IMG/VR virus record: IMGVR_UViG_2529292913_000006 | Length of the DNA stretch: 50,227 nt | Strand: one strand, 5' to 3' | Source: a virus | Taxonomy: Duplodnaviria > Heunggongvirae > Uroviricota > Caudoviricetes | Shown here: piece by piece, positions 1 to 48,724 of the stretch | How the letters are laid out: each line of letters opens with the position of its first letter | Position numbering within the stretch: the stretch's first letter is position 1 | Position numbers and translations under genes: made by a program | Notes under the pieces: model-generated | Told to the model about the DNA's origin: nothing | Databases searched by the model: none | The model's input: only the letters and a program-made list of their open reading frames with translations

Positions 1-1143
1 CTATGCTGTTTTGATATCTACGATAATCCAGTCTTTACCACGATCATCATTGTATCGGTCGGTCATTTTTCTGGATTTATGGCCTAACAATTTTTGCGTA
101 TCCAGACCCTGTTCCCGATATAACCGTTCTGACAGAGATCGCTGCTCATGAAATGTGGGCGCAGTTCCTTGCTCCCATTTTATGCCACATTTTTCCCGGG
201 CCTTTTTAAAAGCCGTTGTCAGAGTATTTGCAGAAACCTGGTCTCCTCTGTTTGCTTGAGAGGTAGTGTGACGGTAATGGACCAGATATTTACTAACAAC
301 AGCATCCCTGCACTGAGATATAACTTCACGAAGGGTAATATTCAGAGCATCGCATTTCAGGTTAAGCGGAATAGCAAGTTTTGAACCGGTTTTTTCCTGA
401 GTAATGTGCAACATGTCGTCCCATATATCAGAGAATTTCAAATTGCAGATATCGCCTAAACGTTGTCCAGTAACAAGAGCAAGTAGCATGCCGCATTTTA
501 AATAGGGCTGCCGTCTGCTTACGCTTTCAAATATTGCCTGCCATTCGGGCAGTGACAATCTTTGGCGGTTTACTCGATTTCGCGGTTGTTTTGTTGCCTG
601 CGCTGGGTTAAATCCTGGCGGAACATGTCCTGCGTGTTGTGCTTCTTTGAAGACGTCGATCAACACCATTCTCACGACTTGCGCCATCCTGTTATGACCT
701 TCAGCCTTTACAGCATCAATTATTTCGGCAATATCAAGTGCGGTAATATCCTTGAGGTGTTGCATTCCACAATGCTCACGGAAAAGACGAATGGGTTTGC
801 CTTTTTGCCGATAGGAGTTGGGTCTTAGTTCATTATGTTGCAGCCTGTCCTCCTGGATAGAAATATATTTATCAAGCCATTCTGTCACCGTAATGTCTGA
901 GCGCCTGCCTTTCATTCTTTCCAGACGCTCATTGACGCTTAATATTTGTCGGGTACGTTGTTCAGCAATAATGGTATTTGCTTCAGTAGCAACTTGTTTT
1001 GCTTCATTCTCATCAGTTCCTAAGCTATGAAAACGACCGGATAGTGGATGTTTGTATTGCCAATATACCTTTCCGGTTCGCTTATCTAATTTGCAATATA
1101 AATTGGGTATAGAGATTTTGTGAGATCGGGGTCTAGCAGCCAT
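1..1143 (-). CDS. int: Phage tyrosine integrase (lambdoid, icd-targeting type)
   Basis: 380-aa ORF, ATG at 1143, stop at window edge; C-terminal tyrosine-recombinase motifs; xis immediately upstream; icd 3' fragment at the other prophage end. Confidence 0.9.
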   Translation of the reverse strand: MAARPRSHKISIPNLYCKLDKRTGKVYWQYKHPLSGRFHSLGTDENEAKQVATEANTIIAEQRTRQILSVNERLERMKGRRSDITVTEWLDKYISIQEDRLQHNELRPNSYRQKGKPIRLFREHCGMQHLKDITALDIAEIIDAVKAEGHNRMAQVVRMVLIDVFKEAQHAGHVPPGFNPAQATKQPRNRVNRQRLSLPEWQAIFESVSRRQPYLKCGMLLALVTGQRLGDICNLKFSDIWDDMLHITQEKTGSKLAIPLNLKCDALNITLREVISQCRDAVVSKYLVHYRHTTSQANRGDQVSANTLTTAFKKAREKCGIKWEQGTAPTFHEQRSLSERLYREQGLDTQKLLGHKSRKMTDRYNDDRGKDWIIVDIKTA

Positions 1144-5611: not shown

Positions 5612-5645
5612 AAAACCCGGCACGGTGGCCGGGACGTTTTATTTC
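5612..5645 (-). terminator. Rho-independent terminator ending the immunity-region operon
   Basis: Stem CCCGGC/GCCGGG (5616-5633) followed on the minus strand by a T-run; sits immediately downstream of the DUF4411 stop. Confidence 0.6.
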
Positions 5646-6151
5646 AAAGAAAAATTATGACTAGCGTATCTTGGAAGAAATTCATATAGTGTTAATGTCT
5701 TAACGCCGTGAGAAGCAGCAGCATCCGGGATCATTATTCTTTTTTTAGGTTTGCCACCGGATGGTTTCTCATGGGTAATAATAGTATATCCATGTGTCAT
5801 CGCATGGGCTATTAAAAAAGCATCTGCTTTTTCATGGCTTGCAAAATCAAACTTTGCCTTTTCGGTAACATCTAATTTAGTTGACCAATTTATTAACTTT
5901 GCATAATTTTCTATTGAACTATGCTCATCTTCGAAGAATGATGATGGTAACTCTTCTTTAATCCATTTACACAATGGATCATCTTTTGCACATAGTTCTT
6001 TTTTTACAGCATTAATGCTATAAATCAGACCATTAATGTGTAAAGCGAGAAGAAAATCCCAAAATATTTTGCAATAATTGAAGTTATATGCAAAGTTTTT
6101 TGCCTCTATGAAGACATTACTATCAATTAAGAATTTTCCATTATGAATCAT
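5639..6151 (-). CDS. DUF4411-family protein (predicted PIN-like nuclease), candidate toxin/effector
   Basis: 170-aa ORF; ATG overlaps the stop of the upstream ImmA-like gene (ATGA coupling); family assignment from memory of sequence features. Confidence 0.75.
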   Translation of the reverse strand: MIHNGKFLIDSNVFIEAKNFAYNFNYCKIFWDFLLALHINGLIYSINAVKKELCAKDDPLCKWIKEELPSSFFEDEHSSIENYAKLINWSTKLDVTEKAKFDFASHEKADAFLIAHAMTHGYTIITHEKPSGGKPKKRIMIPDAAASHGVKTLTLYEFLPRYASHNFSLK

Positions 6152-7287
6152 AGAGATTCTCGTTTTTTATAAAATTCAACAACTGTATCTGCTTTTACAT
6201 TTAGCAGTACGCCTGCTTCCCTTAATGGTAATTGTTGAGACATTGCTTTGGAAATTATTATATTCGTAAGTTTTGGACTGTTACGAACAGGTAATGTGTT
6301 AAAGAAAGAACCACCATTGGATTCTTTTTTGGGCTTATTGTAAGCTTGATCTTTAATTATCTCCAAAGTGTTTCTTTCTATCAAATCTAATTGTAACGCT
6401 TTGATTGCACAAGCGAAATCACTAACCTTAAATAACTTAGAAACCTCTTTTACTCGATAATAATTATTATCGCTGGATGCATTAAGCCAGAAAGATTTGA
6501 AGAGATTATCAGGCATTAAGATTTCAGCAGCAACTTTATTACAAAAAGATTCTATGTTTTTTTCTGTGTCCCACCCAGAGACTCCATCGACTCCAAGCCA
6601 AAGATGAGCCACCTCATGAAATAATGTAAATACCTGCGCAGATAACGCGTCCGAGCTATTTACAAAAATGATCGGAGCAACGCTATCAGATATACAGAAA
6701 CCACGAAACTCTCGCGTGTCAAGTTTTCTTTTATTATTATTACCCACAACACCATTCTTGAAAACTAATACGCCAGTGTCTTCTATTAGTTTTGCCACTT
6801 TAGAAAAATAGCTCTCAAAAGTGACATTTTTTATCTCTTTTTGTATATCAAAATGTATTGTGTTTGCTATGTCTGTAGCAACAACCTTATAATTTAATTT
6901 TCTATTAAATTTAAATTTACCAATAAAATCGAGTGGATCATCATTACCATTTTCTCTTAAATAGTCTTTGTACCACTCAAGTTTATATTCTATATCATAG
7001 TAAACATCAAAAAAATCTTTTCCTAACTCACGGCTATTTATAGCTTGCCTTAAGTCAGGGATCTTGGGTTTGGCTGGAGTTGGTGGCGTTTCAAGAAATA
7101 AAAAACCGAAAGGGATTCCTCCAATTTTTGCCAGTTTTTCTGCTGCGGATTTACTTACCACTCCGTTAAGAAATTTATTAATCTTTTTGGGCATGACTTG
7201 GTCAGCAAGAGTTTCGATAGAAACTCCTTGAGAATTTGCTATCCAATCAATCATCTTCCTAGACAATTGAAATTCAACCGCTGCCAT
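6148..7287 (-). CDS. HTH (XRE-type) plus ImmA/IrrE-family zinc metallopeptidase (COG2856-like)
   Basis: 379 aa; HEXXH motif (FHEVAHLWLG) in central region; N-terminal HTH-like segment; good SD (AGGTGA) upstream. Confidence 0.8.
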   Translation of the reverse strand: MAAVEFQLSRKMIDWIANSQGVSIETLADQVMPKKINKFLNGVVSKSAAEKLAKIGGIPFGFLFLETPPTPAKPKIPDLRQAINSRELGKDFFDVYYDIEYKLEWYKDYLRENGNDDPLDFIGKFKFNRKLNYKVVATDIANTIHFDIQKEIKNVTFESYFSKVAKLIEDTGVLVFKNGVVGNNNKRKLDTREFRGFCISDSVAPIIFVNSSDALSAQVFTLFHEVAHLWLGVDGVSGWDTEKNIESFCNKVAAEILMPDNLFKSFWLNASSDNNYYRVKEVSKLFKVSDFACAIKALQLDLIERNTLEIIKDQAYNKPKKESNGGSFFNTLPVRNSPKLTNIIISKAMSQQLPLREAGVLLNVKADTVVEFYKKRESL

Positions 7288-13949: not shown

Positions 13950-15032
13950 TTAGAACTGGTAAACCATACCTACAGCAACGATATCATCGGTAGCAACGCC
14001 AGATGCTTTCGTGAAATCGCTCTTATCAATCAGGTTGATTTTGTAATCAACAAAAGTGGACATATTTTTGTTGAAGTAATAGGTTGCACCTACATCAATA
14101 TATTCAACCAGGTCCTGATCACCCCACGCACCCAAGTCTTTTCCTTTAGATTGCAGGTAAGCAACGGACGGACGCAGACCGAAGTCGAACTGATATTGTG
14201 CAACTACTTCGAAGTTTTGTGCTTTGTTGGCAATATGGTTATTACCAAAAACAGTCATGTTCTGGGTTTCAGAATAGGTGGTAGCCAGATAGATGTTGTT
14301 CGCATCATATTTCAGACCAGCTGCCCATACTTCAGCATTTTGACCAGATGCATTCAGGCTGTTGTTACCGTAGATAACCTGATTATTAGTGCGGTCAGAT
14401 TTAGCATAGGTTGCACCTACACCGAATCCTTCATACTCATAAGTAGTGGAGAAACCGAAACCATCACCATTAGCTTCAGTTACGTCAGTGCGGTCATTTT
14501 TACCCTGATACTGAGCAGCAAAGTTCAGACCATCAACCAGACCAAAGAAGTCGTTGTTACGATAAGTTGCAACACCAGTGGTGCGACCAGTCATGAACAC
14601 ATCTGTTTGGGTCCAGGTATCGCCACCGAATTCTGGCAGAACGTCAGTCCACGCACCGATGTCATATGCTACACCGTAGTTACGGCCGTAATCGATTGAG
14701 CCGTAGTCCCCGAATTTCAGGCCTGCAAATGCAAGACGGGTTTTGTCTTTGGAGGAGCCTTGAGATTCAGCGCGGTTGCCTTTGAATTCATATTCCCACT
14801 GACCGAAACCAGTCAGTTGATCGTTGATTTGGGTTTCACCTTTGAAGCCAAGACGGGCATAAGTAGTATCACCATCATCTGCATCATTAGAGGAGAAGTA
14901 GTGCTTGGCATTAACTTTCCCATATAGATCCAGCTTGTTACTGTCTTTATTATAAATTTCAGCTGCCTGAGCAGACATCGCCATCAGTACTGATGCAGCT
15001 ACAGCAGAAATTGCCACTGTTAATTTTTTCAT
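13950..15032 (-). CDS. nmpC: OmpC/OmpF-family general porin (NmpC/Lc-type, prophage-encoded)
   Basis: 360 aa with signal peptide ([23 protein letters not shown]), porin hallmarks and C-terminal MVYQF; antisense between Q and the lysis cassette. Confidence 0.9.
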
Positions 15033-41800: not shown

Positions 41801-42135
41801 TGCCTTATGCTGGCGTTATTGCACAGGAAGTAATGGAGGCGATACCAGAAGCTGTGGGATCGTTTACTCATTATGGTGAAGAGTTGCAAGGTCCGACCGT
41901 TGACGGCAACGAGCTACGCGAAGAAACTCGCTATCTTAATGTTGACTACTCCGCCGTGACGGGTTTACTTGTTCAGGTCGCCCGTGAAACAGATGATCGC
42001 GTTACCGCGCTGGAAGAGGAAAACACAACGCTACGTCAAAATCTGGCAACAGCAGGCACCCGGATCAGCACTCTGGAAAATCAGGTAAGCGAACTGGTTG
42101 CACTTGTCCGGCAGTTAACAGGAAGCGAACATTGA
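38860..42135 (+). CDS. stf: Side tail fibre: lambda Stf N-terminus fused to a distal region ending in an S74-type intramolecular chaperone domain
   Basis: ATG 38860 (MAVKISGVLKDGAGKPVQNCTIQLKAK...); Ala/Ser-rich SETNA repeats at about 39230-39900; C-terminal SDRDLKDDI... coiled-coil tail. Confidence 0.8.
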   Translation: MAVKISGVLKDGAGKPVQNCTIQLKAKRNSTTVVVNTVASENPDEAGRYSMDVEYGQYSVILLVEGFPPSHAGTITVYEDSQPGTLNDFLGAMTEDDARPEALRRFELMVEEVARNASAVAQDTAAAKKSASDAGTSAREAATHATDATGSARAASTSAGQAASSAQSASSSAGTASTKATEASKSAAAAESSKSAAATSAGAAKTSETNAAASQQSAATSASTATTKASEAATSARDAAASKEAAKSSETNASSSASSAASSATAAGNSAKAAKTSETNADNSAQAAAASQTASANSATAAKKSETNAKNSEAAAKSSETNAKASETNAKSSETNAAKSAADALNYRNQAQVIVGDNIGLGSAPRDCPDISGNPSGYIGFMRIMSNAKGFPSIASGESSLTGFISQVDGTPAYTGVFQGWATRSLYTYRWNPTIGPQWTRHARKDAVDRLTQLTGNTRVYCQNASKFFSIYDSGTWGYYDAENSEWIPLSIAAGGTGAATIDGARTNLGLGRNNSPQLNSLFLDRYSDSTNTYTSSGILHTRLLATDSTVRLGADMYVETLSNEPGQLTIRFTYDGSTGASKYLNLNSEGNLIVDSAILRSTVEKPLQIRSANPAIRFNETDRPANTPTYTLIANAGDWFIQKRDYDDAGSVSNAIAYNFANDRIDVQNLKASGLITANSGIATLTGHDWNSQHTDNVDKFRPIAGSTNGPAGSMVLGGIHVQFSKNYAVQFGGRNSGFWGRTIENGTTQEWKKLLTVDDLNSSTDLAVRSLTTSNPVKSGGGRIDVLGSTSDYSKMDCFVRGFDSTGNSLAWALGSSVGVSKMLSLKNFFSGAEILLNGNDGAVQLKTGAVNGAKAQALTINKDEVNSTVDLTLTKQTGTGNRFVLQNLGNTELSFAAKVWGSSDRQNVFEVGTSAAYLFYAQKTSAGQLFDVNGAINCTTLNQSSDRDLKDDILVISDATKAIRKMNGYTYTLKENGMPYAGVIAQEVMEAIPEAVGSFTHYGEELQGPTVDGNELREETRYLNVDYSAVTGLLVQVARETDDRVTALEEENTTLRQNLATAGTRISTLENQVSELVALVRQLTGSEH

Positions 42136-42174
42136 TATCCTTCAAGCCCTGAAGGAGGCTGTTCCTGGTACGTT

Positions 42175-42306
42175 CAGACTGTTGCTGAGCTGGAGATCGC
42201 AACGGAGGAAGAGAAAGCGTTTCTGGCCGCATGGAAAACATATCGGGTATTGCTGAACCGTGTTGATACAGTAAACCCCGTCTGGCCTCCACCTTCGAAG
42301 CGATAG
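42175..42306 (+). pseudogene. tfa: Remnant 3' end of a tail fibre assembly gene
   Basis: Open frame ...[40 protein letters not shown] resembling Tfa C-termini; no start codon or 5' portion. Confidence 0.45.
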
Positions 42307-42610
42307 CCCAGCAACTCCTAAATAGCTGCGCATAATACCGCTACACCTGCCGTTTTACTGACATTTGGAATATTGCGTGAGGGCAACATATCGAGGGGCA
42401 GATACAGCTCGGTCAAATAGAAAAACAGCCCCACTATTTACCATGCAATAGCTGGTCAAAAGGAGAGCACTATTCCGCTCCGCGTAGTATTTTGTGTTTA
42501 TAGTGATAACTTAGGTAATGCTTAGTCACTAAGATACTTTGCTATTGGAGAGCGATTTATAATGTGGGCGCAACAGATTTTTACTATTGCGCCACTTGCT
42601 CTTGTGAGTA

Positions 42611-43699
42611 CTATTCGCTATAAGTTAATGTTGGTTTTGAAAGTCTTTTGGATATTGTTTTTCCGATATTAATGAATGGAGTTTCAATATATTTATAAAT
42701 AAAGAATGATAAGAACAAGCTAAGAGCAATAATGAATGAAAACTTAGAGAACCCAGGTTTTTCATAAAGCGGAATGAAATCCTTAAAATTAATTAAAAAT
42801 AGCATTACTATCGCATGGGATAAATACAGAGAGTAAGAGATATCACCTAGCTTACTGAGTATTTTATTTTCCCTTAATCCGAAGTTAACTTCATAAAGTA
42901 AAACTCCCGTAATTATGGAGGCTGCCCACAATCCGAAGTTTAAAGGGCCATGACCAAATCTGAATTGATAAAAATATGAGCAAACACCAAATGAAACCAA
43001 AAGGAATGATATCGCCTTTGCGTTTTTTATATATTTAAATTTTCTGTGTATTATATACAGAAACATCCCATAAACGAATTCTAACAGCATGGGTGATGAC
43101 ATTAAGTTTAGAAAGCCAATATGCCAATGACCTGTATCACCAATCGTAAACTTACTTGATAGAGAAAGGCTGTTGGAAAATTTCAACTGTATGAGAAGTA
43201 GCGGGACTATCAATGCAATAACTGATATTAATAATCTGTTTTTATGACTCAGCGATATTGCAAGCATAAAAATGAAATAAAAATAGACTTCAAAGGTTAA
43301 TGTCCATGCTGGATAAAGCACGTTGTATCCGAAGAATGGCGCTTCTGAATAATAGTCCAGGTGAAGCAGAAACAATGAACGCAATAATTCACTTTCGGTG
43401 AAGACTGGGTTCAATAAAAAGAATAAGATTGTGCAAATGAAAAATACAGGGTAAATCCTGAAAAAACGCCTGGTCATAAAGTTAATAGGGGAATTTGTTT
43501 CTTTTTTTTGACTCGATAACATTATTATAAATCCACTTATAATAAAAAACAGATCAACCCCAAAACCACCACTAATAAACAATAAATCACCTAGATCTTT
43601 TTGTGCGTAAACTTCATTTAGGTATTGTTTATTGTGATATGCAACAACGAGTAATGCTGCTACACCTCGCAAATAGTGAATTGATTTTACCTTCTTCAT
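42611..43699 (-). CDS. Acyltransferase family 3 integral membrane protein (O-antigen/LPS acetyltransferase-like)
   Basis: 362 aa, about 10 predicted TM segments, conserved N-terminal region (YLRGVAALLVVAYH...FFIISGF); low GC; antisense. Confidence 0.8.
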   Translation of the reverse strand: MKKVKSIHYLRGVAALLVVAYHNKQYLNEVYAQKDLGDLLFISGGFGVDLFFIISGFIIMLSSQKKETNSPINFMTRRFFRIYPVFFICTILFFLLNPVFTESELLRSLFLLHLDYYSEAPFFGYNVLYPAWTLTFEVYFYFIFMLAISLSHKNRLLISVIALIVPLLLIQLKFSNSLSLSSKFTIGDTGHWHIGFLNLMSSPMLLEFVYGMFLYIIHRKFKYIKNAKAISFLLVSFGVCSYFYQFRFGHGPLNFGLWAASIITGVLLYEVNFGLRENKILSKLGDISYSLYLSHAIVMLFLINFKDFIPLYEKPGFSKFSFIIALSLFLSFFIYKYIETPFINIGKTISKRLSKPTLTYSE

Positions 43700-44169
43700 T
43701 TTTATATAATCACTGTTCCAATTTTTTTATTTTACAAACAATTCTATCTAGCTCATTAGTACTCAAAGTCAGATTGGTAGCAATAAAAAAACAAGATATG
43801 TGATGACATGGCGCGGGGCTCAGAACCACTCGTGTATTTTCGCCACTGGCTATGACTGGCTGCACCTGCAAGATCTGCCATTTGTGTGCCAGTATACCCA
43901 AGCTCTGACTTTATGTTTACCAGATCCTCTGGAGTGCCGGGGAGTATAATCGTTGATTAATCGAATCTGCAACTATTTCAGAACGACCTAGGTTAAAGTG
44001 CGCTCTGCAGTCTCTTATATAAGGTGATACTTTAATTGTCTGGAAACTGGACAGGTTAGGAAGGAGCAGGAAACATCTTATTATACTTACCGAGTAGCTG
44101 CGGGTAAGGGGGGGATTTCCGTAGCCTGACAGGTAACATTGACACGTCAACATCGATGGTTTTTTTTAT

Positions 44170-44412
44170 TTTTCCATGTGATGGAGCCCTGGTTGAAATG
44201 AAGCGTGAACTGATTGATGACTGAACAAAAGTTGGACTGGAAGATGCTCGCGCACAGGGAGGAATTGGTGGACGTCGTCCTAAACTTACATCAGAACAAT
44301 GGGCGCAGGCCGGGCGATTAATTGCATCAAAAGTCCCGCGTCAGAAGGTGGCGATCATCTATGATATTGGTGTATCGACTTTGTATAAGAGGTTTCCAGC
44401 CAGGATTATATA
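44170..44412 (+). pseudogene. pin: DNA invertase (Pin/Gin/Hin family) 3' remnant with frameshift
   Basis: Frames encode FFHVMEPWL..., MKRELIDD*, then LEDARAQGGIGGRRPKLTSEQWAQAGRLIASKVPRQKVAIIYDIGVSTLYKRFPAR, matching invertase C-terminal HTH; N-terminal catalytic domain absent. Confidence 0.7.
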
Positions 44413-44736
44413 AAACTGCAGACACGCCGTATGCAAGACGTGCTGCGGTTGGTTGATGCACTTTCGAGAGTGTATGTATTGAATAATTTCCAACCGTCAT
44501 TAATTTTATTTATTTTTTGCATGAGAGGATTTGAACCTCCGAGCCTCGACACCTTATGACAACGCGATATTCCCTTGATGACCGCTATGCGCCAAAATAA
44601 CCAATTGATAAATAAGTTGATTTTAATTGGTTGGAAGCAAGTCAGGTCAAATTCAGCATGCCGCTCTCTGTATCGGGTAGTTAAATTTTTCTATAACTGA
44701 TAGTAATATGTTAAAACTCACACAGATAAATTATCA

Positions 44737-46719
44737 TTGCTCAACAAGTATAATGGAGTTCCCGTGGATACAGCAGAACATGATGGCAAATTTGCTTGGG
44801 CTAGTTTTTATGAGGCTTTTGCCAACGCGTTACTGACTTGGCGAAATCGTAGAGATGAATTAGTCAAAGGTATTCATCTAATTGCCTCAGGTGTGGAAGG
44901 AATGTCCCATCTGCAGGACAAATCTATTATGGGAGAGATCTTTCCCTTAAAAGACATTTGTCCGTTTACTACTATGGGCTTGTTCAATCGTAACTTGACC
45001 GACAGCAATCGCAAAATTATTGCTGCCAAGCTAGCGAATTTGTTGGGCGTGAACGAACCGATTCCTGACTCCTTTGCCGGAATCCCGCTGTTGAATAACC
45101 AAAAATCTTGGTTCTTTGGTTATGAAAAGTCACGCGACCCTAATGACATTGAATGCTTGTGGGAAATGTTCTCGCAGGCAATGACCTTTGCGGATAACCA
45201 GAATACTAACTCTGCAGACTTCACTGCCGCATATGACATCGCTTCTACAGTAATGAATGTCGGTTGGAATCTCACCATGGGGTTGTACTGGACCCGTCCT
45301 TGGTTCTACCCTACTTTAGATAGCCAGTCGCAGTATTACATTCAGACAGTGTTAAACATTAAGATCATTAAAAACGGGGCAAAAGGTCGCTGTAGTGGAC
45401 AAAGTTACCTGAGTCTTATGCGGGCGCTGAACGAGGTCTTTACCCAACCAAACTATCCGGTTCATTCTTTCCCAGAACTTTCTTTATCAGCGTGGAATAC
45501 AGATCTTAGCCAGTCTAAAGATGAGGTGGCAAATAGAACGTGGAAAGCCTCTTTACTGAATAAAATTAAGGCGTTATGCCTGAAAAAAAATGGCCCTTAT
45601 TTCACTGCTTCGGAGTTGGAAGAAAACTACTTGGACGTATTCAAGGTAGAGCATCCTGAGAGCAAAACAGTTACAAGCTCAATCTACTTTTATCTACAGA
45701 AACTATGCAATGATGATGAGTTAAAGTCCCTTGAGTCCGGAAATTATGAATACCTGAATTTTGAGAAAAACGAATCCCAGACGATAACTGAGGAAACTGT
45801 CGAAGAGAGTGCGCCGTTGCCAAAACTCACTCACGTTCCTTATGACATCAGTCATCTGGTGCAGGATGGCTGTTTCTTGGAAGAGGCTAAGATCCAACTC
45901 ACACTTCAGCGCCTGATCGACAAGAAAAACCTGATATTACAAGGACCACCCGGAACTGGAAAAACCTGGTTAGCGCGACGTCTGGCGTACTGCTTGATGG
46001 GAGAAAAAGCACCTGAGCGTATTAGCGCGGTGCAATTTCACCCGAACCTCTCTTACGAAGACTTTATTCGCGGCTGGCGTCCAGGTAAAGAAGGGCAATT
46101 GACGCTAATTGATGGACCTTTTGTAAATGCAATCAAAACTGCAGTCAATAATCCTACCTCGAAATATGTGGTGATAATTGAAGAGATTAATCGTGGCAAT
46201 CCGGCGCAAATCTTCGGTGAAACACTCACGTTGATGGAAGCAGATAAACGCACGCCGACTGAGGCATTATCTCTTTCCTATCCTAAAAATGATGATGAAA
46301 AAATATACATTCCTGAGAATCTATATATCATCGGTACGATGAATATTGCAGACCGCTCACTCGCACTACTTGACCTAGCGCTGCGCCGTCGTTTCGCGTT
46401 TATCGATCTAAAGCCAGCTTTTAATGACGCGTGGAGAAACTGGGTAAATTATAATTACGCAATTGATTTTGACATGTTAGCATTCATCAAATCTCGACTG
46501 ACGGTACTTAACGATATGCTGGCAAAAGATGTTACCTTAGGACCACAGTTTTGTATCGGTCACAGCTATGTCACCCCAGCTATCGGCCAAAAAATCAACG
46601 ATGCCCAGGCTTGGTATGAACAAGTCGTTGATACAGAGATCTGCCCTTTGCTCGCCGAATATTGGTTCGATGCTCCAAATAAAGTCGATGAAGCCAGAAA
46701 AGTGTTATTAGCAAAATGA
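44737..46719 (+). CDS. McrB-like AAA+ GTPase with a long uncharacterised N-terminal domain
   Basis: Walker A GPPGTGKT, Walker B VVIIEEINRGN, McrB-type MNIADRS motif, RRRF arginine finger; about 390 aa of non-canonical N-terminus; start uncertain (track TTG 44737; GTG 44764 has a GGAG SD). Confidence 0.8.
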   Translation: MLNKYNGVPVDTAEHDGKFAWASFYEAFANALLTWRNRRDELVKGIHLIASGVEGMSHLQDKSIMGEIFPLKDICPFTTMGLFNRNLTDSNRKIIAAKLANLLGVNEPIPDSFAGIPLLNNQKSWFFGYEKSRDPNDIECLWEMFSQAMTFADNQNTNSADFTAAYDIASTVMNVGWNLTMGLYWTRPWFYPTLDSQSQYYIQTVLNIKIIKNGAKGRCSGQSYLSLMRALNEVFTQPNYPVHSFPELSLSAWNTDLSQSKDEVANRTWKASLLNKIKALCLKKNGPYFTASELEENYLDVFKVEHPESKTVTSSIYFYLQKLCNDDELKSLESGNYEYLNFEKNESQTITEETVEESAPLPKLTHVPYDISHLVQDGCFLEEAKIQLTLQRLIDKKNLILQGPPGTGKTWLARRLAYCLMGEKAPERISAVQFHPNLSYEDFIRGWRPGKEGQLTLIDGPFVNAIKTAVNNPTSKYVVIIEEINRGNPAQIFGETLTLMEADKRTPTEALSLSYPKNDDEKIYIPENLYIIGTMNIADRSLALLDLALRRRFAFIDLKPAFNDAWRNWVNYNYAIDFDMLAFIKSRLTVLNDMLAKDVTLGPQFCIGHSYVTPAIGQKINDAQAWYEQVVDTEICPLLAEYWFDAPNKVDEARKVLLAK

Positions 46720-47837
46720 CGACAATAACCGGGAGTGAGCAACATACAGCATCACGTATTCCCATGCGAAATATCTGGATGCTGATGCTGTACGCTTCAG
46801 ATCTGTTTCGTCAGTTAGGGCGCAATCAGATCGCAGTAGAAGATAACCCAGCAGAAATCCCCGACCTGGTGGCGACAATCCTCCTTCATGAGATTACGCT
46901 GCGCCGACGTCGCAATTTAAATATGGGATACCAAACTTGTCATGCGGCCCTGAACCGGGTGAGAGGGCGCATTGACATACTGTATACTGCCAGTCATCAA
47001 CTACTGGAACGGGGACAGGTTGCCTGCCATTTTCAAGACATAACCCTCAACACCCCCCGAAATCGCTATGTTCGCTGTGCGTTAGAACGTCTGGCCTCAA
47101 TCATAGTGAAACCGTCTTTGGCGGCAGATTGCCATTTTATGGCAATATCACTTCGCCGTGAGGGGATAAATGGAGGATATCCTGCCCCCCACGAATTACC
47201 CTCAGTGTGGCGTTTTGGACGCCATGATGCCGCAGATAAACCGATGGTCGATGCCGCACGATTAGCTTTTGAACTGCTGATGCCGACCGAAGATCAAGGC
47301 CAATATCTTTTACCTGCGCCCTCAAATAACCTTTACTGGATGAGAAGACTATTTGAAAAAGGTATCGCTGGCTTATATCGTGTACACCTTGCCAAAACAA
47401 CTTGGCAGGTCTCTGCAGGGAAAGAGCTGAAATGGGCGTTGAGCGATCAAAGTGCAGGTAGTGCAGAGATTTTCCCGACAATGAAGTCAGACATTATTCT
47501 GGAACACAAGACTGCCCAGCGGCGTATTATTATCGATACCAAATTTAATTCGATTCTGACAAAGGGTTGGCATCGGGAGCAATCACTACGTAATGGCTAT
47601 ATTTATCAGCTATATACCTACCTTAGAACACAGGAGAACAAGACGGATCCGCTTTCGCTCAATGCCGCTGGTCTTCTACTTCATCCAGCTGTTGGCTATA
47701 TGCTTAATGAGTATGTTGTCACTCAGGGACATAAGATCCATTTTGCTACAGTAGATATGACGGTAGATGCTAAAGCAATTAAAAAACAATTGCTGGCAAT
47801 AGCCCATGATTGTGCAGGAGTCGCGGTTGATGACTAA
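46716..47837 (+). CDS. McrC-like PD-(D/E)xK nuclease partner
   Basis: 373 aa; ATGA overlap with upstream gene; candidate catalytic motif SDIILEH...IIIDTKF. Confidence 0.7.
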   Translation: MTTITGSEQHTASRIPMRNIWMLMLYASDLFRQLGRNQIAVEDNPAEIPDLVATILLHEITLRRRRNLNMGYQTCHAALNRVRGRIDILYTASHQLLERGQVACHFQDITLNTPRNRYVRCALERLASIIVKPSLAADCHFMAISLRREGINGGYPAPHELPSVWRFGRHDAADKPMVDAARLAFELLMPTEDQGQYLLPAPSNNLYWMRRLFEKGIAGLYRVHLAKTTWQVSAGKELKWALSDQSAGSAEIFPTMKSDIILEHKTAQRRIIIDTKFNSILTKGWHREQSLRNGYIYQLYTYLRTQENKTDPLSLNAAGLLLHPAVGYMLNEYVVTQGHKIHFATVDMTVDAKAIKKQLLAIAHDCAGVAVDD

Positions 47838-48539
47838 CCATCCTATAAGGCACTGGCTGTAATATAATCAATAGTTTCAATTAAGTAGCTGTTATCCGTG
47901 CTTAGTCATCATATGACGCACCACGGTCTAATTTTCCTGCTCATACATTGATATATCCTTGTCGAGCCCGGAAAGTCGCAGTCCACTATTAGGTATACCG
48001 ATTGCCAGCACCAAAAGCTTCTTTGTAATTATTATATCGGGGAATGCCTATTTTTTAGTGACAATATCAGATAGCAATTAATAAGCGGTGCCGGTAATGG
48101 ATGTTATGTTTAATGTATAGATACAGTCATCATAAACTAAACGTCTGTTGTTCGCTCATAACCGACATTTATCTCAGTTATGGAAGATAATTATGTATGC
48201 AGATAATGGGGCAGACAGTCGTGGAGTAAACAAGGTTTTGCACTGATTGGCGGCATCGTTATCTTATTTTTAATTATGTGCCTCTTAACATAAGTTGGGA
48301 CAAAACAGAGACACATAAGGTCTCACAAAGGTCTGCAAGGCCTCACATGTATTGAGGTGTTAATAAAATGTAGACTTGTAATTTGGATATAAATGGTAGA
48401 GAAAACCTTTCCCCAAAATAAAAACGAACGTCAATGAAATCAAACGGTTGAATAAAGTTGATTTTGGCTAATAAAAAAACAATAAAATATTTTTTATGAT
48501 TAAATATCAATGACTTGAACTTAATGTTTTTATATACTG

Positions 48540-48701
48540 TTACGCCATATGGGTTGGACTGAAGCGGCTGACCTGATTGTTAAAGGTATGGAAGGCGCAA
48601 TCAATGCCAAGACCGTAACCTATGACTTCGAACGTCTGATGGAAGGCGCTAAATTGCTGAAATGTTCAGAGTTTGGTGACGCGATCATCAAGAATATGTA
48701 A
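48540..48701 (+). pseudogene. icd: icd 3'-terminal fragment at attR (icdC-type remnant)
   Basis: Frame encodes [53 protein letters not shown], the C-terminus of isocitrate dehydrogenase, with no upstream gene body; AT-rich phage DNA to the left. Confidence 0.85.
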
Positions 48702-48724
48702 TCTCTCCATGTGTTAAATATTGA

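Follow-up and report, generated by a model that had tools for sequence, protein, structure and literature searches.

A candidate O-antigen acetylase gene of foreign composition beside the side tail fibre gene of a lambda-like Escherichia coli prophage

The acyltransferase gene and its product

We analysed a 50,227-nucleotide stretch of viral DNA (IMG/VR record IMGVR_UViG_2529292913_000006, Caudoviricetes; hereafter the window), which is essentially one apparently complete lambda-like E. coli prophage together with its right chromosomal flank. Between the side tail fibre gene (stf) and the right prophage end lies an antisense gene for a membrane-bound enzyme of the acyltransferase-3 (AT3) family, which we read, with moderate confidence, as a moron for an O-antigen O-acetyltransferase that is active, or was until recently, and that would alter the serotype and the phage receptors of the lysogen. 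Phage AT3 acetylases encoded antisense beside a receptor-binding gene are already well known; the gene described here is an uncharacterised member of a different, large and mainly phage-borne AT3 lineage.

An ATG-initiated open reading frame (ORF) for 362 amino acids fills positions 42611..43699 of the minus strand exactly and without interruption. At 32% G+C content (GC), stops are expected to make up about 7.6% of codons, and a stop-free run of 362 codons would arise by chance with a probability of about 3e-13, as calculated from base composition. The product, which is identical to the RefSeq protein WP_000756238.1 ('acyltransferase family protein'), scores 119.2 bits in a Pfam search with PF01757 (Acyl_transf_3; gathering cutoff 31; E 2.6e-34; residues 5-335 of the protein, model positions 2-325/326), and is matched by PHROG 3333 ('O-acetyltransferase') at 2e-71. 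None of the NCBIfam equivalogs (WecH, OpgC or similar) and none of the PADLOC defence models matches the protein, and a literature search for WP_000756238 returned no mention in any paper.

The gene stands out from its surroundings by composition. Its GC is 0.322, compared with 0.558 in J, 0.555 in lom and 0.49 in the whole window, and in a 100-bp profile the values fall from about 0.50 to 0.24-0.42 and return sharply to 0.55 at position 43800. Low GC (0.32 versus 0.56), a minus-strand orientation among plus-strand tail genes and absence from the equivalent position of phage mEp460 together mark the gene as a moron. A preliminary description of this DNA, made from its letters only, had already called the gene AT-rich and its product an acyltransferase-3 protein of 362 amino acids with roughly ten transmembrane helices, and our data agree with it on each of these points.

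All residues that define AT3 enzymes are in place. The R/K-X10-H pair corresponds to R11 and H22 in transmembrane helix (TM) 1, the FFxISG motif to F51-F52-I-I-S55-G56 in TM2, the RXXR motif to R78-F-F-R81 before or in TM3, and the conserved glycine of TM6 to G211. None of these residues varies in an alignment with Sf6 Oac, phiV10 Oac and NeaT, and across 82 homologues of the subfamily they are invariant or at least 90% conserved (R11 and H22 at least 90%). Pearson et al. 2020 (PMC7448272) found both R14 and H25 of the R/K-X10-H pair of OafA to be essential, and the AT3 motifs of OafA and Oac to be essential or invariant.

An AlphaFold2 model of the protein, built on the 82 homologues (pLDDT 94.1, pTM 0.92), has ten long helices (residues 5-22, 36-62, 71-96, 129-150, 155-175, 194-218, 227-244, 255-273, 279-304 and 317-354), with which the hydropathy profile agrees. 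A sequence search of the PDB gave no match, and Foldseek found nothing significant there (best hit 8jkv_A, E 0.06, TMq 0.34); neither route led to a solved structure of an AT3 protein. PF01757 is the sole Pfam domain, and the model stops after TM10, with neither an eleventh helix nor an SGNH domain; the same AT3-only architecture is found in Oac, WbaK and WecH (PMC7448272; PMC9558356). The gene encodes an intact stand-alone AT3 enzyme with all catalytic motifs, which is potentially active.

A protein of this build could instead be the acetyl-translocating half of a two-protein system, in which a second, periplasmic SGNH/GDSL transferase receives the acetyl group and acts, for example, on peptidoglycan or another polymer. 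AT3-only WecH can indeed replace PatA and then works with the SGNH protein PatB (PMC7448272; PMC9558356), a GDSL protein adjoins the Pseudenterobacter homologue discussed below, and a few tailspikes next to related genes carry GDSL or SASA domains. Since no SGNH/GDSL gene occurs among the ORFs that flank the AT3 gene in the 38-47 kb region of the window, since most homologue contexts lack such a partner, and since Oac and WbaK function as stand-alone AT3 enzymes (PMC7448272; PMC9558356), we consider a two-protein arrangement very improbable.

Relatives of the enzyme and their genomic contexts

The protein is a distant relative of the enzymes whose function has been described. It is 24% identical to Sf6 Oac, 21% to NeaT and 18% to phiV10 Oac, while identities peak at 36% among phage records and at 42% among plasmid records; the gene itself is absent from all 50,697 phage records. 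Its 100% protein cluster has 364 members, from E. coli, and the next cluster is 53-54% identical. The preliminary description had left the closest characterised homologue to a profile search, which yields no close one: the subfamily profile aligns with Sf6 Oac over the full length (HHalign probability 95.5%, 304 columns), and with NeaT at a probability of 19% (E 1.2e-3). Orthology to a characterised Oac can be dismissed at identities of 24% (Sf6) and 18% (phiV10).

In layout, the locus closely resembles that of Sf6. Sf6 Oac (OacA) is likewise AT3-only (333 versus 362 amino acids) and shares the R/K-X10-H, FFxISG and RXXR motifs, and its gene also lies antisense directly downstream of a receptor-binding (tailspike) gene near the prophage end. 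It is an O-antigen O-acetyltransferase that confers serotype conversion and superinfection immunity (PMC9558356). The two differ in sequence to such a degree that tblastn at 1e-3 does not detect one with the other and homology is seen at the profile level only, and they belong to different kinds of phage: Sf6 is a P22-like podovirus with an O-antigen-cleaving tailspike, whereas the lambda-like phage of the window has a J tip and a side fibre that is non-enzymatic. The oac gene of phiV10, a phage of E. coli O157:H7, also encodes an AT3-only protein and lies antisense directly after a tail-fibre gene; according to its annotation, the product acetylates the host O-antigen and 'functions in superinfection immunity'. 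With only 18% identity to phiV10 Oac, the window protein thus represents a different AT3 lineage in an equivalent position.

Closer relatives were sampled for context in the form of seven homologues at 42-54% identity. Two from Serratia (52-54%) lie antisense within prophage tail-fibre or baseplate modules. One E. coli homologue (48%) sits, in a prophage related to phiV10, between a 735-amino-acid ORF and a holin gene, which is the phiV10 oac slot, and another (42%) between a P22-type tailspike gene and int, which is the Sf6 oac slot. The Erwinia homologue (47%) adjoins an O-antigen glucosylation cassette of the gtrA/gtrB/gtrC type, and the Salmonella homologue (44%) terminates an O-antigen gene cluster on its gnd side, beside gnd-ugd-wzz. 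The latter is the kind of position held by WbaK of Salmonella enterica group E1, an AT3-only O-antigen acetylase encoded at the end of the O-antigen cluster (PMC9558356); this comparison concerns position and architecture, not sequence, and WbaK is chromosomal whereas the window gene is phage-borne. Six of the seven contexts thus suggest a connection of this subfamily with the O-antigen or with the phage proteins by which it is bound.

The same connection appears on a larger scale in viral contigs. At least 513 AT3 relatives occur in IMG/VR contigs, of which we surveyed 80 loci. In all 80 the AT3 gene is AT-richer than its flanks (median GC 0.346 versus 0.49), and among the 58 contigs that reach 20 kb or more, 45 have it no farther than 5 kb from a contig end. 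At 53 of the 80 loci the gene is abutted (within 600 bp) by an ORF of at least 450 amino acids, placed convergently downstream, as in the window, in 33 cases and co-directionally upstream in 18. At least 38 of 54 abutting ORFs have tail-fibre PHROG matches (tail-fibre or tailspike proteins), 28 match a tailspike PHROG, and the Pfam domains that they carry include Tail_spike_N (21), beta-helix (11), P22 head-binding (8), S74 (5) and T7 tail-fibre (4).

Seventeen pairs of loci, some of which are not independent of each other, have AT3 proteins at least 80% identical, and in 16 of these the distal 350 amino acids of the neighbouring protein are similar too. In most such pairs the N-terminal anchor of the neighbour is dissimilar, and in many the rest of the locus is dissimilar as well; pairs with dissimilar anchors or backbones are, for example, L047/L062, L049/L061, L069/L076 and L070/L072. 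Conversely, no pair combines similar distal domains with an AT3 identity below 50%. Tip similarity in 16 of the 17 pairs in spite of unrelated anchors argues that the AT3 gene and the receptor-specific tip move as one cassette between unrelated phages. Such joint transfer would be expected of an enzyme whose target is the very glycan recognised by the tip.

The survey also showed that some AT3-adjacent tailspike or fibre genes carry acetyl-esterase domains of the GDSL/SGNH or SASA type (L006:5749-7623, and 3-4 of the 54 neighbours). An acetyl 'writer' gene thus stands beside a putative virion-borne 'eraser', and one may ask whether some of these phages depend on the modification made by the lysogen or strip it off.

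The substrate might nonetheless be another glycan altogether. NeaT (c0970, from prophage phi-b0847 of strain CFT073) also belongs to PF01757, and its gene shares with the window gene a GC of about 30%, an antisense position after a tail-fibre-assembly gene and rarity in E. coli. AT-rich, rare, antisense AT3 morons of this type beside tail genes have already been described, including homologues in lambdoid prophages (PMC3573123). The window gene could therefore encode a host-fitness or envelope factor that acylates enterobacterial common antigen (ECA), capsule or colanic acid, the lipopolysaccharide core or periplasmic glucans, to the benefit of the bacterium (aggregation, immune evasion, serum behaviour), with phage exclusion absent or incidental. 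NeaT itself, encoded at 30% GC and antisense between P2-like tail genes, promotes bacteremia fitness, and its substrate is not known (PMC3573123); AT3-only enzymes have a wide range of glycan substrates, among them ECA for WecH and osmoregulated periplasmic glucans for others (PMC9558356); phage mEp460 has the same fibre tip as the window phage without an AT3 gene; and one homologue of the window protein is encoded beside a GDSL esterase gene in a flagellar region.

NeaT differs in belonging to a P2-like prophage and in its demonstrated bacteremia-fitness phenotype, and at 21% identity and an HHalign probability of 19% (E 1.2e-3) we rejected the window protein as its orthologue. There is likewise no match to a WecH- or OpgC-like NCBIfam equivalog, the closer homologues that we sampled sit at O-antigen loci or receptor-binding genes, and the tight co-transfer with tailspike tips argues for a connection to phage receptors. 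We therefore regard a NeaT-type role as unlikely, and an O-antigen acetylase as the better account of the gene.

The prophage, its fibre and the fate of the gene

The window (Table 1) runs from a lambda-type integrase gene through head and tail genes to an icd' fragment at about 48.5-48.7 kb, and the prophage gene set includes the integrase, an S24/HTH repressor, gpA terminase, lambda-family portal, capsid E, tape measure, J, Lom and stf. In near-identical loci of complete E. coli genomes the element is integrated in icd, the attachment site also used by e14 and phage 21, and icd' is followed by iraM, ycgX and bluR. The AT3 gene is thus prophage-borne, and it lies antisense just downstream of the tail fibre gene, both of which the preliminary description had recognised: stf and the AT3 gene are convergent, with stop codons 476 bp apart and a remnant of a tail-fibre-assembly gene (tfa) between them.

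Table 1. Features of the prophage around the AT3 gene and at its ends (positions in the window)
Feature	Position	Strand	Basis
Lambda-type integrase, left prophage end	1..1143	-	PF09003 and PF00589; adjoins icd in locus L002
Side tail fibre Stf, 1093 amino acids	38854..42135	+	PF08400 (phage_tail_N), 1.2e-71; PF13884 (Peptidase_S74), 4.5e-13
Tail-fibre-assembly (tfa) remnant without N-terminus	42184..42306	+	RefSeq annotation of 99.9%-identical locus L001, 12085-12207, shift +30099
AT-rich foreign block (moron) around the AT3 gene	~42450..43800		GC profile; ~160 bp on the 3' side of the gene, ~100 bp on the 5' side
AT3-only membrane O-acyltransferase gene, 362 amino acids, intact	42611..43699	-	ORF, PF01757, PHROG 3333, motifs, 10-TM model
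Non-coding region upstream of the AT3 gene, presumed promoter (inferred)	43700..43966	-	Single promoter-like site on this strand at 43919..43891, TAAACA-17-TATACT
Serine recombinase/DNA invertase (pin-like) pseudogene, without N-terminus, frameshifted	43967..44416	+	RefSeq annotation of L001, 13868-14317, shift +30099
McrB-like AAA+ protein (660 amino acids) and McrC, type IV restriction-like module	44737..47837	+	PF07728, PF10117
icd' fragment, right prophage end (attR)	48537..48704, approximate	+	Annotated 'isocitrate/isopropylmalate family dehydrogenase, missing N-terminus' in L001 and L002

From stf to the right attachment site (attR), the order is tfa remnant, antisense AT3 gene, pin remnant, McrB-like AAA+ gene and McrC gene. 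The tfa scar is also matched in mEp460, and the pin remnant has an 87% DNA match to a phage 'DNA invertase'. In phages with invertible fibres, the slot of the AT3 block is where the invertase gene begins (its 5' end) and where an alternative tfa'/fibre-tip segment lies; the block thus appears to have replaced both. No genome was found to have both AT3 flanks adjacent to each other in a joined-flank search for an 'empty site', and a search for repeats bounding the block as a cassette gave only short repeats at chance level.

Several observations weigh against an active O-antigen acetylase, and the first of them concern its fibre. Stf has a lambda-type N-terminus, a distal tip and a C-terminal S74 intramolecular chaperone, and its identity to the Stf of mEp460 is 90% in residues 1-513 and about 100% between residue 757 and the C-terminus, a part that comprises tip and chaperone. 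mEp460, with this same tip, has no AT3 gene: a DinI-like gene and then int follow the same tfa scar. In strain AR_0369, the reverse is seen, the AT3-pin'-McrBC-icd' segment being kept while the fibre is deleted. Within the window, the AT3 gene is cut off from both neighbours by gene scars (tfa and pin). A tip without the enzyme, an enzyme without the fibre and the scars between them do not support a masking of this fibre's receptor by this enzyme. The distal half of Stf also matches fibres of phages isolated on K-12 (mEp460, FritzHoffmann and a T5-like phage), from which glycan binding is not deducible.

Further points against the O-antigen reading come from the relatives. The nearest characterised enzyme is only about 24-28% identical, and the substrate is therefore not transferable by homology. 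The seventh of the sampled homologues, from Pseudenterobacter, is chromosomal and lies in a flagellar region beside a GDSL esterase gene (L008:7136-7831) and a second AT3 gene, a context not obviously related to the O-antigen. The co-transfer of AT3 genes and tips, moreover, could be a mere hitch-hiking of adjacent DNA.

A third group concerns selection and expression. Among 5,426 complete E. coli genomes, 42 carry the AT3 gene, in each case chromosomally and with an identity of at least 99.4%; the carriers include commensal, enterotoxigenic and environmental strains. About 26 of the 42 copies are uninterrupted; about one third (~14) have an insertion sequence (IS1 or IS3), a frameshift or a 5' truncation, and in two strains a mere 46 nucleotides of the gene are left. 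The adjacent pin' flank is found at 99% identity or more in at least 236 records, versus the 42 with the AT3 gene. In the two AT3-less relatives that were inspected, an IS1 marks the deletion junction, and the McrBC-like module has stayed intact. Retention of this restriction module is evidently far commoner than retention of the acetylase gene. Its survival where the AT3 gene was lost, together with the disrupted copies, suggests weak selection on the AT3 gene.

Promoter-like sites are no more frequent than expected from shuffled sequence (10 versus 8.4 +/- 2.6), a scan for intrinsic terminators at the AT3 gene found none, and the Shine-Dalgarno sequence of the gene is weak. In E. coli, H-NS typically silences DNA as AT-rich as this (32% GC), and expression of the AT3 gene is thus not assured. 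For NeaT, whose gene is laid out similarly, 211 bp of native upstream DNA drive expression (PMC3573123).

The IS1 copies of the two AT3-less relatives (L093:5984-6681 and L094:6144-6841) stand exactly at the former place of the AT3 gene and are joined to a truncated terminase gene, and a second IS1 lies a few kb past attR, so that IS1 is evidently the main agent eroding this prophage. These relatives were also considered as an uninserted ancestral state, which we rejected because of the IS1-mediated deletions at the junctions.

The gene may, accordingly, be no more than silent cargo: an intact leftover of an older fibre/acetylase cassette which replaced the invertible fibre segment and which, in most hosts, is unexpressed or lacks a cognate acceptor sugar and drifts towards loss. 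The flanking tfa and pin scars fit such a history, as do the roughly 14 disrupted copies among 42, the two vestigial ones and the IS1 deletions that removed the gene while McrBC persisted (at least 236 versus 42 records). The same is true of the lack of a convincing promoter, of the absence from 50,697 phage records and of the decay of the prophage in several carriers. Against this, the ORF in the window is intact with all catalytic residues in a prophage that looks complete, about 26 genomes have an uninterrupted copy at 99.4% identity or more, and the 100% cluster has 364 members. We consider pure cargo rather unlikely, and still favour an acetylase that is, or recently was, active on the O-antigen.

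For the immunity that the preliminary description had proposed, namely modification of the phage's own receptor, the outcome is mixed. The intact foreign AT3 moron, the layout shared with the oac genes of Sf6 and phiV10, whose products are proven by experiment to be O-antigen acetylases (PMC9558356), and the links of the subfamily to O-antigen and receptor-binding protein genes speak for it, whereas mEp460, AR_0369 and the scars lend no support to the proposed pairing with this fibre. Protection against the phage's own virions is thus doubtful; protection against other O-antigen-binding phages, or a mere change of serotype, is equally compatible with the data. The enzyme may be the orphan of an earlier cassette, with any protection aimed at other phages.

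On a more speculative reading, the AT3 gene and the distal tip would form an exchangeable two-gene cassette which hops among P22-like, epsilon15-like, Mu-like and lambdoid backbones with different anchors. The window would then represent a derived, uncoupled state, reached after replacement of an invertible alternative-fibre segment, in which the fibre is not the cognate one and the enzyme shields the lysogen from other O-antigen-binding phages, though not from the virions of its own prophage. If this is true, cognate pairs of tip and acetylase could be read from genomes, and would predict the glycan bound by each tip. Cassette behaviour is a property of the subfamily, perhaps worth a study of its own, and the window locus is rather an exception to it.

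Stf itself is a mosaic, in which the middle ~270 residues (~460-730) are unrelated to mEp460 and 109 amino acids shorter overall. This suggests a recombinational swap of an internal fibre module, and not of the tip. At 42100-42275 (+), overlapping the end of stf and the tfa scar, Rfam IS009 (RF02111) gives a sub-threshold match (62.5 bits against a gathering cutoff of 117), which probably reflects mere similarity to prophage tfa regions and not a small RNA.

Further cargo lies elsewhere in the prophage. The McrBC-like module occupies the place where e14 has mcrA, and at least 236 E. coli records retain it, even where most of the prophage has been lost to IS1 deletions together with the AT3 gene; its McrC scores 355.6 bits against an NCBIfam cutoff of 338, and the McrB model matches only residues 378-654 of the 660-amino-acid protein, so that the first ~380 residues would form a different N-terminal domain. 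Between the pin remnant and the McrB-like gene, at ~44515-44530, we noted a GGATTTGAACC motif, the reverse complement of the tRNA T-arm consensus. ARAGORN and Rfam detect no tRNA, whole or fragmentary, at this place (~44.52 kb), and the GGATTTGAACC motif may be due to chance or be a very short att-like relic. Beside the repressor gene, an AT-rich pair at 5639-7287 (-), with a GC of ~0.32 over 6001-7000, encodes a Peptidase_M78/ImmA-IrrE-like protein of 379 amino acids and a DUF4411 protein of 170; the former has weak PADLOC matches to capP and RmrA, and the pair may be a regulatory or defence-type moron. Finally, a general porin (Porin_1, 510 bits; 360 amino acids) is encoded at 13950-15032 (-), in the region of the early/late junction. 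This further surface-altering cargo could itself change phage receptors.

Proposed activity and its meaning

The route of acetylation can be sketched from what is known of the family, for which a transient membrane pore for acetyl-CoA has been modelled (PMC9833829). By analogy, the ten helices of the window protein would form such a transient pore, which cytoplasmic acetyl-CoA enters from the inside, its phosphates gripped by R11 and by the RXXR residues R78 and R81. The acetyl group would be presented near H22 at the periplasmic face and passed to a hydroxyl group on a sugar of a surface polysaccharide that is nascent or linked to undecaprenyl. Donor and acceptor are both deduced from relatives, with the host O-antigen as the most likely acceptor. 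A lysogen that expresses the gene would thus carry an O-acetylated O-antigen, and with it a changed serotype and a changed receptor for O-antigen-dependent phages.

By itself, the locus is an ordinary one, a further example of a long-known class of lysogenic-conversion genes. O-acetylation of the O-antigen alters serotype, antibody recognition and phage susceptibility. If the enzyme is active, the prophage would therefore be a serotype-converting element in E. coli and a source of unexplained resistance to O-antigen-dependent therapeutic phages. Beyond this prophage, the strict co-inheritance of AT3 enzymes and tailspike tips could help to match receptor-binding proteins with their glycan receptors.

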